A stretch of DNA of 42,979 nucleotides from Escherichia coli (lineage in GTDB: Bacteria > Pseudomonadota > Gammaproteobacteria > Enterobacterales > Enterobacteriaceae): the NCBI RefSeq assembly GCF_003334815.1, contig NZ_QOWO01000032.1. One strand, given 5' to 3'. Of this stretch, positions 15,996 to 22,830 are shown piece after piece. The notes beneath the pieces were generated by a model. The model had not been told where the DNA came from and did not search any database. It was given only the letters and a program-made list of their open reading frames with translations. How positions within the stretch are numbered: the stretch's first letter is position 1; each line of letters opens with the position of its first letter. A program made the translations under genes and the position numbers.

Positions 15996-16021
15996 ACAAA
16001 AAAGGCCATCATACGATGGCC
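15996..16021 (-). terminator. Intrinsic terminator of the suc operon / SdhX
   Basis: Hairpin ggccatc-atac-gatggcc (16004..16021); on the minus strand followed by a run of about 8 U. Confidence 0.6.
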
Positions 16022-16096
16022 AACCATGTCGAAACCGACAGCCCTTCGCCATTCCTGTAGAGGGAAGCGGCGAGGGCTATTTCTTATTACAGATAT
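15996..16096 (-). ncRNA. sdhX: Probable 3'-UTR-derived sRNA SdhX (RybD)
   Basis: About 100 nt between the sucD stop and the terminator, GC-rich (…cccttcgccattcctgtagagggaagcggcgagggc…). Assigned by position and literature memory; exact ends not determined. Confidence 0.5.
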
Positions 16097-16966
16097 TTAT
16101 TTCAGAACAGTTTTCAGTGCTTCACCGATATCCGCCAGGCTGCGAACGGTTTTCACGCCTGCGGCTTCCAGAGCAGCGAATTTCTCATCCGCAGTCCCTT
16201 TCCCACCGGCAATGATGGCACCCGCGTGGCCCATACGTTTGCCTTTCGGCGCAGTCACACCAGCGATGTAACCCACAACTGGCTTGGTAACGTGCTCTTT
16301 GATGTACGCAGCTGCTTCTTCTTCAGCGCTACCGCCGATCTCACCGATCATCACGATCGCTTCGGTCTGCGGATCTTTTTCGAACATTTCGAGAATGTCG
16401 ATAAAGTTAGAGCCCGGGATCGGGTCACCGCCGATACCGACACAGGTCGACTGACCGAAACCGTAATCCGTGGTCTGTTTAACCGCTTCATAGGTCAGTG
16501 TACCGGAACGGGAAACGATACCCACTTTACCCGGTTTGTGAATGTGACCAGGCTGGATACCGATTTTGCATTCACCCGGAGTGATAACGCCTGGGCAGTT
16601 CGGGCCGATCATACGAACGCCTGCTTCATCCAGCTTCACTTTCACGGTCAGCATATCCAGCGTCGGGATGCCTTCAGTGATGGTGATAATCAGTTTGATG
16701 CCTGCGTCGATGGCTTCCAGAATGGAGTCTTTGCAGAACGGTGCTGGTACGTAGATAACAGAAGCGGTAGCGCCAGTGGCAGCAACGGCTTCACGCACGG
16801 TGTTGAACACCGGCAGGCCGAGGTGGGTGGTGCCGCCTTTACCTGGGGTTACGCCGCCAACCATTTTAGTGCCGTATGCAATGGCCTGTTCTGAGTGGAA
16901 AGTCCCCTGGCTACCGGTAAAGCCCTGGCAGATAACCTTGGTGTTTTTATCGATTAAAATGGACAT
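16097..16966 (-). CDS. sucD: Succinyl-CoA synthetase alpha subunit
   Basis: 289 aa starting [45 protein letters not shown]; CoA-binding and catalytic His-loop region. Confidence 0.97.
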
Positions 16967-18132
16967 TATTTCCCCTCCACTGCGGCAACAACCTGCTGAG
17001 CTGCATCCGTCAGACCTTTTGCTGCAATAATATTCAGGCCGCTGTCAGCCAGTTTCTTCGCGCCGAGTTCGGCGTTGTTACCTTCCAGACGTACCACGAC
17101 CGGTACGTTAACACCCACTTCTGCTACCGCGCCGATGATACCGTCAGCGATCAGGTCGCAACGAACGATACCGCCGAAGATGTTAACCAGAACGGCTTTC
17201 ACTTTGTCGTCAGAGAGGATGATTTTGAACGCTTCGGTTACACGTTCTTTGGTTGCGCCGCCGCCAACGTCAAGGAAGTTAGCCGGTTCGCCGCCGTGCA
17301 GTTTAACGATGTCCATCGTACCCATCGCCAGACCTGCGCCGTTAACCATACAACCGATGTTACCGTCCAGCGCAACGTAGTTCAGTTCCCACTGTGCAGC
17401 CTGTGCTTCACGCGGATCTTCCTGCGACTGGTCACGCATTTCGCGCAGATCAGGCTGGCGGAACAGTGCGTTGCCGTCAGCGCCCAGTTTGCCGTCGAGG
17501 CAAATCAGATCGCCCTGTTTGGTGATGACCAGCGGGTTGATTTCGATCAACGCCAGGTCGCGCTCCAGGAAAATGGTCGCCAGGCCCATGAAGATTTTGG
17601 TGAACTGCTGAACCAGTTTACCTTCCAGACCCAGTTTGAACGCCAGCTCGCGTCCCTGATACGGCATCGGGCCAGTCAGCGGATCAAGCGCAACTTTATG
17701 GATCAGGTGCGGAGTTTCTTCCGCCACTTTTTCGATTTCCACGCCGCCTTCGGTGGAGGCCATAAAGACCACACGACGGGAACTACGGTCAACAACGGCA
17801 CCGAGATACAGCTCTTTAGCGATATCGGTCGCTGCTTCAACCAGAATCTGGTTAACCGGTTGGCCATTGGCATCTGTTTGATACGTTACCAGACGCTTGC
17901 CCAGCCAGTTTTCTGCAAAAGCACGGATGTCTTCTTTGCTGTTTACAACTTTCACACCGCCCGCTTTACCGCGGCCACCAGCGTGAACCTGACATTTCAC
18001 TACCCACGGACCGGCACCGATTTTTGAAGCGGCTTCTTCTGCTTCGCGCGGAGTAGTACAGGCATAACCCACCGGTGCTGGTAAGCCATAGCGGGCAAAA
18101 AGTTGTTTTGCCTGATATTCATGTAAGTTCAT
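16966..18132 (-). CDS. sucC: Succinyl-CoA synthetase beta subunit (ATP-grasp)
   Basis: 388 aa starting [20 protein letters not shown]; stop overlaps the sucD start by 1 nt. Confidence 0.97.
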
Positions 18133-18214
18133 GTGTTCTGTCCATCCTTCAGTAATCGTTATCTTTTAAACCGTAGACCGAATATTTCGTATCGCTTCCG
18201 GGCATTGTCGGTCA

Positions 18215-18485
18215 CCCGTAGGCCTGATAAGACACGTTAAACGTCACATCAGGCATCGCTTGTCGGATGCGGCGCTTGCGCCTTATCCGACCTACATTGG
18301 TGGTCCCCGTAGGCCTGATAAGACACGTTAACCGTCACATCAGGCATCGCTTGTCGGATGCGGCGCTAGCGCCTTATCCGACCTACATTGGTGGTCCCGT
18401 AGGCCTGATAAGACGCGTCAGCGTCGCATCAGGCTTCAATTGCCGGAGAAGGCGATAATGCCTTATCCGGTCTACAGTGCAGGTG
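18215..18485. repeat. Three tandem ~91-bp BIME/REP-containing units between sucB and sucC
   Basis: Units begin near 18215, 18306 and 18396; each contains gtaggcctgataagacgcgt…gcatcaggc and gccttatccg REP-like palindromes. Confidence 0.85.
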
Positions 18486-18497
18486 AAACTTAAACTA

Positions 18498-19715
18498 CTA
18501 CACGTCCAGCAGCAGACGCGTCGGATCTTCCAGCAACTCTTTGATCGTTACCAGGAAGCCCACGGATTCGCGACCATCGATCAGACGGTGATCGTAGGAC
18601 AGCGCCAGGTACATCATCGGCAGGATCTCAACCTGACCATTCACCGCCATCGGACGATCTTTGATAGCGTGCATACCCAGAATTGCGCTCTGCGGCGGGT
18701 TGATGATCGGCGTAGACATCAGGGAACCGAACACACCACCGTTGGTGATGGTGAAGTTACCACCGGTCAGATCTTCAACGGTCAGCTTGCCGTCACGGCC
18801 TTTGACTGCCAGCTCTTTGATTTTCTTCTCGATGTCTGCCATGCCGAGGGTATCGACATCACGCAGAACCGGCGTCACCAGGCCGCGCGGCGTAGAAACC
18901 GCCATGCTGACGTCGAAATAGTTGTGGTAAACCACGTCATCGCCGTCGATAGAAGCGTTCACTTCCGGGTAACGTTTCAGGGCTTCAACCACCGCTTTCA
19001 CGTAGAAGGACATAAAGCCCAGACGGATGCCGTGGCGTTTTTCAAACGCTTCACCGTACTGCTTACGCAGATCCATAATCGGCTTCATGTTGACTTCGTT
19101 GAACGTGGTCAGCATGGCGGTGGAGTTTTTCGCTTCCAGCAGACGCTCTGCCACACGCTTACGCAGGCGAGTCATCGGGACACGTTTTTCACTACGTGCA
19201 GCCAGAGCCGGTTGCGCCGCCGGAGCAGCCGCTGCCGGAGCAGACTCTTTCGCCGGGGCTTTCGCCAGATGTTTTTCCACATCTTCACGAGTCAGACGAC
19301 CACCCACACCGGTACCTTTAATGGCGCTGGCGTCGAGATTGTGTTCAGCCAGCAGGCGACGGATCGCCGGGCTTAACGCATCGTTGTTTTGCTCTTCCAG
19401 AGACGCCTGCTGGCGTTGCGCCGGAGTGGACGCTTTCTCTTCAGATTTGGCGCTGGTTTCTTTACCGGCGCTGTTGCCTTCACGCAGGCGACCAAGGATC
19501 TGACGAGACGTTACCGTTGTACCTTCATCTTCCAGAACCGCATCCAGAATGCCGTCTGCTGATGCCGGTACTTCCAGTACCACTTTGTCAGTTTCGATTT
19601 CTACCAGCACTTCATCACGTACGACTGCGTCGCCGGGTTTTTTATGCCAGGTTGCGACGGTGGCATCGGCTACGGATTCAGGCAGGTCAGGGACCAGAAT
19701 ATCTACGCTACTCAT
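18498..19715 (-). CDS. sucB: 2-oxoglutarate dehydrogenase E2 (dihydrolipoyllysine-residue succinyltransferase)
   Basis: 405 aa; N-terminal lipoyl domain (…[12 protein letters not shown]…), Ala/Pro-rich linker, C-terminal catalytic domain (…DHRLIDG…). Confidence 0.97.
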
Positions 19716-19729
19716 TGTGTATCCTTTAT

Positions 19730-22531
19730 TTATTCGACGTTCAGCGCGTCATTAACCAGATCTTGTTGCTGTTTCTGGTGAACGGACATATACCCTACCG
19801 CCGGAGAGGCGGAGGCCGGGCGGCCTGCATAACGCAGAGAAGCCCCAAACGGAATCACTTCACGGAAATGATGCTGGCTGCAGTACCATGCGCCCTGGTT
19901 GAGCGGCTCTTCCTGGCACCAGACAAAATCCTTGACGTGAGCAAACTGCTGCAACACTTCCTGCATCGCTTTATGCGGGAACGGGTAGAGTTGCTCGATA
20001 CGCACAATGGCGACATCGTGTTGATTGTTCTTACGACGCTGTTCCAGCAGGTCGTAATAAACCTTACCAGAACACATCACTACGCGCTTCACGCCCTTCG
20101 GATCAAGCTCGTCGATTTCACCGATGGCTGGCAGGAAGGTGCCGTTCGCCAGTTCTTCGAGGCTGGAAACCGCCAGCGGATGACGCAGCAGGGATTTCGG
20201 CGACATCACGACCAGCGGACGACGCATCCCGCGCAGCGCCTGACGACGCAGCATGTGGTAAACCTGTGCCGGGGTAGACGGTACGCAAACCTGCATGTTT
20301 TGCTCAGCACAAAGTTGCAGATAACGTTCCAGACGCGCGGAGGAGTGCTCCGGCCCCTGCCCTTCGTAACCGTGCGGCAGCAACATCACCAGACCACACA
20401 TCCGGCCCCATTTCTGTTCGCCAGAGGAGATGAACTGGTCGATAACCACCTGCGCACCGTTGGCGAAGTCACCGAACTGCGCTTCCCAGATGGTCAGAGT
20501 GCGTGGTTCTGCGGTGGCATAACCATATTCAAACGCCAGCACTGCTTCTTCAGACAGTACGGAGTCCCAGACACGGAACGCGCCCTGCCCGTTATGGATA
20601 TGTTGCAGCGGCGTGTAAGTGGAACCGTTAGACTGGTTGTGGATCACCGCGTGGCGGTGGAAGAAGGTACCGCGACCGGAGTCTTCACCCGACAGGCGAA
20701 CCGGAATGCCTTCATCAACCAGCGTGGCGTAAGCGAGGTTTTCCGCACCGCCCCAGTCGAACAGTTTCTCACCGGCAGCCATCGCCTGGCGATCGCCATA
20801 AATCTTGGCAACGCGAGACTGCATTTCAACTGCTTCCGGCACCGTGCTGATGCGTTTCGCCAGCTCCTGCAGGCGCTTCATCTCAACTTTGTTCGGGTAC
20901 TCTTCGTCCCATTCGTGGTTGAGGTACGGCGACCAGGTGAAAGAGTGCATGTTCATCGGACGCCACTCTGCCACTACGCAATCGCCAGCATCCAGCGCAT
21001 CGCGGTACAGGTTAACCATCTCGGTGGCATCTTCCAGCGTCGCCACTTTTTCCTGCTCCAGCTTGTCAGCGTAGATTTTGCGCGGTGTCGGATGTTTTTT
21101 GATTTTCTGATACATCAGCGGCTGGGTTGCGCTCGGCTCGTCGGCTTCGTTGTGGCCGTGACGGCGGTAGCACACCAGGTCGATGAAGACATCACGTTTA
21201 AAGGTGTTACGGAAATCGAGCGCCAGACGGGTCACAAAGGCAACGGCTTCCGGATCGTCCGCGTTAACGTGGAAAATCGGGGCCTGAACCATCTTACCGA
21301 TATCAGTACAGTACGGCGTAGAACGGGCATCCAGCGGATTAGAGGTGGTGAAACCAACCTGGTTGTTGATAACGATACGTACCGTACCGCCAACTTCATA
21401 ACCACGCGCTTTCGACATGTTCAGGGTTTCCTGAACCACGCCCTGCCCGGTCACTGCGGCGTCACCGTGGATGGTGATTGGCAGCACTTTGTTGCTGCTC
21501 GGCTCATCAAGTCTGTCCAGACGGGCACGAACAGAACCGATAACTACCGGGCTTACAATCTCAAGGTGAGACGGGTTAAACGCCAGCGCCAGGTGCACCA
21601 GGCCGCCATCGGTCTGGAAGTCAGACGAGAAGCCCATGTGGTATTTCACGTCACCCGTGCCGAGGTGTTCTTTATGTTTACCGGCGAACTCGTCGAACAA
21701 GTCTTGCGGTTTTTTACCCAGCACGTTCACCAGCACGTTCAGACGACCACGGTGCGCCATCCCGAGAACCACTTCGCGGGTGCCGCTGTTGCCAGCGTGG
21801 CGGATCATCTCTTTAAGCATCGGGATTAACGCGTCACCGCCTTCCAGCGAGAAGCGTTTTGCGCCAGGGAATTTTGCGCCGAGGTAACGTTCAAGACCTT
21901 CAGCGGCGGTCAGTTCGCTTAAGAAGCGTTTTTTCTCTTCGCTATTGAAAGTCGCGCGACCAGACTCGATACGCTGTTGGATCCAGCGTTTTTCTTCGGT
22001 GCTGGTAATGTGCATATACTCGGCACCAATCGGGCCGCAGTAGGTTTGCTTGAGGGCTTCCAGCAGCTCGCCGAGTTTCATGGTTTCTTTGCCGCTGGCA
22101 AATGAACCGACGTTGAAGGTCTCCTGGAAGTCTGCTTCGGTCAGATCGTGGAAAGACGGATCCAGATCGGCCACTTTATCTTGCTGCCACAGTCCCAGCG
22201 GATCGAGATTCGCATGCTGGTGACCACGGAAGCGGTATGCGTTAATGAGCTGCAGGACTTTAACCTGCTTCACATTGGTGTCAGGGTCGGAGATCGTTGA
22301 AGAGTAACGTGAAGCGTCTTTCGCCAGGCGGCGGAAATATTCACGCGTTTGAGAGTGGAATTGATCCGGTTTGACTCCCGTACCAGGTAACTGCTGGAAC
22401 GTCGAACGCCAGTTAGCGTCAACCGAGTCAGGATCGGTTAAGAAGTCTTCATAGAGCTGTTCTATCCAGCTCTGGTTTGCGCCAGAGAGGTAAGAAGAGT
22501 CCAACCAGGCTTTCAAAGCGCTGTTCTGCAT
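19730..22531 (-). CDS. sucA: 2-oxoglutarate dehydrogenase E1 component
   Basis: 933 aa starting [38 protein letters not shown]; ThDP-dependent E1. Confidence 0.97.
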
Positions 22532-22710
22532 CGTGATCCCTTAAGCATCTTTTTTATGCTTACTTCGCCGTGGATACTACCACGCACAGTGATGTGCGTG
22601 CCGGGGTTCACTTGCGAGCTCTTGTCTACGTAGTGGCTCGCGAAGGAACCTTTAAAAACTGTCTTAGTGTCAGGGGCAGTTTTTAAAGATTTCCTGCATT
22701 TCTTTGTTAC

Positions 22711-22830
22711 GCCTGATGCGCTGCGCTTATCAGGCCTACGGGTAATGACTTGTAGGCCGGATAAGGCGTTCACGCCGCATCCGGCACTGGTTGCCTGATG
22801 CGACGCTTGCGCGTCTTATCAGGCCTACGG
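22711..22830. repeat. REP/BIME cluster in the sdhB-sucA intergenic region
   Basis: Three REP-like palindromes (gcctgatgcg…cttatcaggcctacg; tgtaggccggataaggcg…; gcctgatgcgacgcttgcgcgtcttatcaggcctacgg) immediately after the sdhB stop. Confidence 0.8.

Follow-up and report, generated by a model that had tools for sequence, protein, structure and literature searches.

Overlapping stop and start codons in the sdh-suc cluster of Escherichia coli: known junctions that probably reflect translational coupling

Three gene junctions in the sdhCDAB-sucABCD cluster of Escherichia coli, namely sucC/sucD, sdhD/sdhA and sdhC/sdhD, are formed by overlapping stop and start codons, and the explanation that best fits the evidence is that termination-reinitiation coupling, aided by a Shine-Dalgarno (SD) motif located inside the upstream gene, links the production of SdhC to SdhD, SdhD to SdhA and SucC to SucD, subunits that assemble 1:1. 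We put the probability of this reading at about 0.7. All three overlaps are already known, being textbook features that have been catalogued and already been read as signs of coupled translation. One article (PMC11751636) credits the single-nucleotide overlap of sucC/sucD and its translational coupling to Buck, Spencer and Guest (1985, Biochemistry 24:6245), and Table S2 of Huber et al. (2023, PMC10666635) lists spacings of -7 for sdhC/sdhD, -1 for sdhD/sdhA and -1 for sucC/sucD in strain K-12, with all three pairs flagged as subunits of a complex. With the overlaps in the literature since the 1980s, their presence here has little significance beyond confirming the gene boundaries drawn by an earlier sequence-only reading of this DNA; the contribution of the present analysis is the comparative picture of the three junctions.

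The DNA analysed (the window) is a stretch of 42,979 nucleotides of E. coli chromosome (assembly GCF_003334815.1, contig NZ_QOWO01000032.1). Its 10.2-kb portion from 16000 to 26200 is 100% identical to NZ_CP033250.1 and to several other complete E. coli chromosomes, and each of the 5,426 complete E. coli genomes contains a match to it. The genes follow the order sdhC-D-A-B-sucA-B-C-D with a divergent gltA adjoining, in agreement with the RefSeq gene table. Five of them concern us here, all on the minus strand: sucC (16966-18132; succinyl-CoA synthetase beta subunit, 388 aa; NF001913, 611.7 bits; RefSeq), sucD (16097-16966; alpha subunit, 289 aa; NF004230, 492.5 bits; PDB 1SCU/2SCU), sdhA (23564-25330; flavoprotein subunit, 588 aa; TIGR01816, 922.7 bits; RefSeq), sdhD (25330-25677; membrane anchor subunit, 115 aa; NF007022; PDB 1NEK chain D) and sdhC (25671-26075; cytochrome b556 subunit, 134 aa as annotated; NF007021; RefSeq). 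The coordinates of all five agree with those that RefSeq assigns in an identical genome, NCBIfam equivalog models span all five proteins end to end, and the E. coli chains in the PDB comprise residues 2-289 of SucD (1SCU/2SCU) and residues 1-115 of SdhD (1NEK chain D). The same structures, together with the NCBIfam assignments, place the products in the heteromeric complexes SucCD and SdhCDAB, although shared membership in a complex is an enriched property of termination-reinitiation pairs rather than a defining one.

It should be noted that the 129-position NF007021 profile aligns to residues 6-134 of the SdhC annotated from the ATG at 26075, which suggests that translation may possibly begin at the ATG at 26060 to give a protein of 129 aa. 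Neither ATG has a good SD motif (-5.1 kcal/mol for 26075 versus -2.5 kcal/mol for 26060).

The codon overlaps themselves are unambiguous, and here the sequence and the RefSeq boundaries bear out the sequence-only reading at every junction. At sucC/sucD, TAATG occupies 16964-16968 of the minus strand (CATTA on the plus strand), so that the last A of the sucC TAA doubles as the first letter of the sucD ATG and nucleotide 16966 is common to both genes. At sdhD/sdhA, TGATG occupies 25328-25332 of the minus strand (CATCA on the plus strand), and the last A of the sdhD TGA, nucleotide 25330, opens the sdhA ATG. The sdhC/sdhD overlap is longer, consisting of the seven nucleotides ATGGTAA (25671-25677, minus strand), in which the sdhD ATG (25677-25675) begins 4 nt ahead of the sdhC TAA (25673-25671). 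The possibility that these overlaps stem from misannotated start codons was ruled out by alignment of homologues, by in-frame stops in relatives and by the chain ends in the PDB. Likewise, a start of sdhA at the GTG at 25342, an extension offered by the list of open reading frames, was rejected on the basis of homologue alignment and in-frame stops: relatives at 36 loci carry, at the homologous position, an in-frame stop immediately ahead of the sdhA start, and the start is therefore the ATG at 25330, matching RefSeq.

Ahead of every downstream start, within the coding sequence of the upstream gene, lies an SD-like sequence, given here with the free energy of its duplex with the 3' tail of 16S rRNA. 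The sucD motif, GGAGGGG (16972-16978, minus strand), is contained in the final sucC codons (GAG GGG) and forms the strongest duplex among the eight genes of the cluster (-9.8 kcal/mol). The sdhD motif, AGGAG (25685-25689, minus strand; -6.9 kcal/mol), lies within the Ala-Gly-Val codons of sdhC, and the codons for the conserved Trp-Gly-Val end of SdhD supply a weak run, GGGGTG (25336-25342, minus strand; -6.0 kcal/mol), ahead of sdhA. Codon choice in related loci is biased towards the first two motifs: the sucC tail encodes its Glu with GAG in 56 of 56 cases, versus 25% GAG across the remainder of sucC, and the sdhC tail encodes its Gly with GGA or GGG in 80 of 83, versus 22% elsewhere in sdhC and sdhD, although the common descent of the loci inflates the p-values of these codon tests. 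Synonymous sites flanking the embedded motifs vary freely. This biased codon choice shows that the sucD and sdhD motifs are maintained by selection at synonymous sites. Codon choice at the sdhA motif is uninformative because TGGGG is dictated by the conserved Trp and Gly residues.

The geometry of the junctions was compared across relatives by means of an SdhA scan with one genome per species, which yielded 80 loci (SdhA 81-100% identical) from Enterobacterales, Aeromonadales, Vibrionales and Alteromonadales, with gene models derived from tblastn. The sdhC/sdhD spacing is -7 in 77 of 79 related loci, and the junction reads ATGGTAA apart from two cases of ATGGTAG and one of GTGGTAA. The sucC/sucD spacing is -1 in 57 of 66 loci, the others being +2, +3, 0, -4 and -13. 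At sdhD/sdhA the exact 1-nt overlap occurs in only 26 of 79 loci, although the spacing is always tight (0 in 36 loci, -1 in 26, +1 in 11, +3 in three, -4 in two and +6 in one); in Vibrio and Aeromonas, sdhA begins with a GTG immediately after the sdhD TAA. As an internal control in the same loci, the spacers of gene pairs that do not overlap in our strain range over 11-134 nt for sdhA/sdhB, -4 to 358 nt for sucA/sucB and 56-261 nt for sucB/sucC. Within E. coli, the 60- and 71-mers representing the junctions are found in at least 5,421 of the 5,426 complete genomes, and single-nucleotide polymorphisms in sucC/sucD fall outside GGAGGGGAAATAATG in three aligned sequences. Overall, both the sucC/sucD TAATG, SD motif included, and the 7-nt junction of sdhC/sdhD are nearly invariant over the four gammaproteobacterial orders, and the 1-nt sdhD/sdhA overlap is only one among several equally tight variants.

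Nine distant SucD representatives (44-68% identity) were examined, two of which lie at contig ends, where the junction is absent, and were excluded; of the seven informative beta/alpha pairs of the SCS type, five have a 4-nt overlap between the two genes and the others show spacings of +20 and +353. In the archaeon Haloferax volcanii, sucC/sucD is at -4 and sdhC/sdhD at -1 (Huber et al., 2023, PMC10666635). Table S4 of the same study, covering 1,695 species, gives a median of +7.8 for SucC>SucD (quartiles -1 and +21, n = 1220), +1 for SdhC>SdhD (-7 and +11, n = 730) and +4 for SdhD>SdhA (+1 and +18, n = 690). Because the medians are positive, overlap is not required for these complexes.

Two further observations concern the suc genes in other organisms. 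In Pantoea sp. Nvir, a symbiont of Nezara viridula (locus L050), the sucC frame extends 13 nt into sucD and ends in an altered C-terminus (NKCLF*), which looks like a stop codon shifted or lost in the symbiont. In addition, five proteins of ~690-730 aa (P0064, P0068, P0076, P0077 and P0080) have a SucD-like C-terminal half, and in P0064 a part that aligns to SucC (residues 1-371; 34% identity, E 3e-53) is followed by one that aligns to SucD (residues 405-690), an arrangement which indicates that in some lineages SucC and SucD are encoded as a single fused polypeptide.

In the termination-reinitiation model, a ribosome that has completed the upstream gene would halt within 1 to 7 nt of the following start codon, an SD motif in the coding sequence just translated would help to retain it there, and the retained ribosome would restart on the downstream gene, so that the output of the downstream subunit would track that of the upstream subunit. 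The spacings of -1, -1 and -7 lie within the same-strand range of about -8 to +10 nt that is treated as predictive of termination-reinitiation (Huber et al., 2023, PMC10666635), and an SD motif 5-10 nt before the start and inside the upstream reading frame, which is usual in E. coli without being obligatory, is present for sucD and sdhD and in weak form for sdhA. No promoter- or terminator-like sites were found at the three junctions, which leave no room for transcription signals, and Rfam likewise gave no match to a regulatory RNA family at these junctions. We infer that translation of sucD, sdhA and sdhD depends on the upstream gene, the presumable benefit being 1:1 production of subunits, and de novo initiation at the embedded SD motifs probably contributes as well, especially for sucD. 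A literature search found neither a direct coupling experiment on sucC/sucD or sdhD/sdhA nor measured synthesis ratios for SucC:SucD or the Sdh subunits.

For these genes, the single relevant experiment that the literature search turned up concerns sdhC to sdhD and is indirect. Urban and Vogel (2007), who also report a polycistronic sdhCDAB mRNA, saw near-background expression of an sdhD::gfp fusion that included 60 nt of the preceding sequence but had no translated upstream reading frame, whereas GFP was well detectable when the same sdhD fragment was placed behind a translated FlacZ'-'sdhC frame; they attribute the gain to enhanced translation or mRNA stability, and the result may therefore reflect a stabilised mRNA instead of coupling. 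On a translated sdhCD fusion, repression by the small RNA RyhB was absent (Urban & Vogel, 2007). An exact-complement scan with the RyhB sequence, which was verified by Rfam, located a 13-nt exact complement of RyhB nucleotides 29-41 at 25698-25710 (minus strand), within the 3' end of sdhC and 21-33 nt upstream of the sdhD ATG; this is the RyhB/sdhD site proposed in the literature (Urban & Vogel, 2007). A complement of at least 13 nt arose in 3 of 200 shuffles. The complement in the sdhC 3' end is kept in most Enterobacteriaceae loci.

The most serious competitor, although we consider it unlikely as the principal account, is that ribosomes initiate de novo at the embedded SD motifs, with the overlap being merely compact, the two cistrons functionally independent and the stoichiometry set by separately tuned rates. 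This is most plausible for sucD, whose SD motif is the strongest of the eight genes; moreover, no hairpin was found hiding any of the three start sites (z-scores of the local minimum free energy were 0.2 to 1.4 relative to shuffled sequence), and the strength of the motif and the weak local structure together make independent initiation feasible. Selection on synonymous sites in the SD motifs would also be explained by de novo initiation, and the proposed RyhB block of the sdhD ribosome-binding site presupposes it (Urban & Vogel, 2007). Overlap alone is, furthermore, insufficient for coupling, because among five native overlapping E. coli pairs examined by Huber et al. (2019, PMC6728339), all with a spacing of -4, four were coupled and the fifth, bioB/bioF, overlaps yet initiates de novo. 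The same tally of four out of five nevertheless argues against independent initiation, as do the background expression of sdhD::gfp in the absence of upstream translation despite its own SD motif, the failure of RyhB to repress the sdhCD fusion, the conservation of junction geometry far tighter than that of the neighbouring spacers, and the weak SD motif of sdhA, whose start is also the costliest in the cluster to open (13.3 kcal/mol).

Translational coupling, as advanced in the sequence-only reading, is the standard and most probable interpretation, given the coupled native pairs, a 4.5-fold enrichment of complex subunits among close gene pairs (Huber et al., 2023), the conserved geometry and SD motifs and the sdhD::gfp data; however, the earlier statement that the overlaps imply coupling was too strong in view of bioB/bioF and the strong sucD motif. 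The accompanying claim that they balance subunit stoichiometry across the TCA complexes was too broad. Since sdhA/sdhB (+15) and sucA/sucB (+14) attain their stoichiometries in the absence of overlap, a point that also favours separately tuned initiation, overlap is not a general setter of stoichiometry across these complexes, and the positive median spacings across prokaryotes and the inconstant 1-nt overlap of sdhD/sdhA point the same way.

A more specialised version of coupling, to which we give little credence, holds that ATGGTAA at sdhC/sdhD is a dedicated back-stepping reinitiation module and that RyhB gates the coupling rather than blocking a free ribosome-binding site. A ribosome terminating at UAA would step 4 nt back to the sdhD AUG, and RyhB, whose site falls within the sdhC frame being translated, would come into play only once translation of sdhC is already low. 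If true, such gating could account for the absence of repression on the well-translated sdhCD fusion (Urban & Vogel, 2007).

It is still less probable that coupling is exerted through unfolding of the mRNA, whereby the upstream ribosome would melt a structure hiding the start and a fresh 30S subunit would then bind. This is one of two mechanisms discussed for E. coli (PMC6728339), and the opening energies at the starts are moderate to high (13.3 kcal/mol for sdhA, 10.3 for sucD and 10.0 for sdhD, versus 5.4 for sucB). However, the folds at the three starts, considered locally, are no more stable than those of shuffled sequence, and strict conservation of distance suits a hand-off of the ribosome better. 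Finally, that the overlaps are neutral by-products, frozen accidents of genome compaction, stop-codon loss or start-codon shifts with expression unaffected, is very improbable, for although the sdhD/sdhA spacing drifts from -4 to +6 among relatives and ATGGTAA is held by two reading frames simultaneously, which by itself slows change, the spacing never exceeds +6 at sdhD/sdhA or +3 at sucC/sucD in 66-79 loci while neighbouring spacers vary by hundreds of nucleotides, and the genome-wide maxima at spacings of -4 and -1, like the enrichment of complex subunits (PMC10666635), speak against it.

Overlaps of this kind are non-random as a class, given their genome-wide enrichment (Huber et al., 2023), and ordinary as instances. 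In E. coli the commonest gene spacing is -4, followed by -1 and -8; 707 of 2,987 unidirectional pairs lie within -8 to +6, and subunits of one complex make up 30.4% of close pairs versus 6.8% of distant ones (Huber et al., 2023, PMC10666635). In the window, the RefSeq table contains 31 co-directional adjacent pairs of coding sequences, nine of which overlap: three at -1 (cydX/ybgE, sucC/sucD and sdhD/sdhA), three at -4 (ybgC/tolQ, ybgP/ybgO and ybgA/phrB), two at -7 (sdhC/sdhD and pxpB/pxpC) and one at -11 (pxpC/pxpA). The overlaps outside the sdh-suc cluster are located at 6837 (cydX/ybgE), 5990-5993 (ybgC/tolQ), 32255-32258 (ybgP/ybgO), 41727-41730 (ybgA/phrB), 36988-36994 (pxpB/pxpC) and 36062-36072 (pxpC/pxpA). 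In addition, the convergent genes abrB (plus strand) and nei (minus strand) share 4 nt where their 3' ends meet (34511-34514).

Several other features of the window were recorded. At 16004-16021 on the minus strand, 76 nt past the sucD stop, the sequence GGCCATCGTATGATGGCC gives a terminator-like hairpin with a T-run after it, which probably marks the end of the operon; Rfam matched no family at this hairpin. The 3' UTR downstream of sucD is the source of the SdhX sRNA. Two tandem Rfam matches of the naRNA4/REP type (18221-18292 and 18312-18383) are situated in the sucB-sucC spacer (18133-18497), and a third (22755-22825) in the sdhB-sucA spacer. Elsewhere, a strong Rfam match (142 bits) to the CpoB/ybgF RNA thermometer extends across the pal-cpoB junction (1519-1657, minus strand), and ybfD at the end of the window (42387-42979) is annotated as an incomplete pseudogene of an ISAs1-family transposase.

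The closest known systems are the same junctions in K-12. For sucC/sucD the genes and the overlap are the same as those ascribed to Buck, Spencer and Guest (1985), and the junction shows no difference; the distances at sdhC/sdhD (-7) and sdhD/sdhA (-1) are identical to those of Huber et al. (2023, PMC10666635), whose Table S2 also lists sdhA/sdhB at +15, sdhB/sucA at 300 and sucB/sucC at 274 for K-12. The sucB-sucC spacer does differ, with 365 nt in the present strain versus 274 nt in K-12 (PMC10666635). [quoted passage not shown] They overlap by 4 nt (ATGA) and their coupling was measured, whereas the sdh and suc pairs overlap by 1 and 7 nt and their coupling is a probable reading of the evidence above. 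The trpB/trpA pair of E. coli is similar in that the genes adjoin, encode two subunits of one enzyme and are linked in translation. It too has a 1-nt TGATG overlap. Its coupling has been demonstrated by mutagenesis, whereas for the sdh and suc pairs we only infer it. The sucC/sucD and sdhC/sdhD junctions are reasonable native test cases for coupling at spacings of -1 and -7, which have been less tested than -4.
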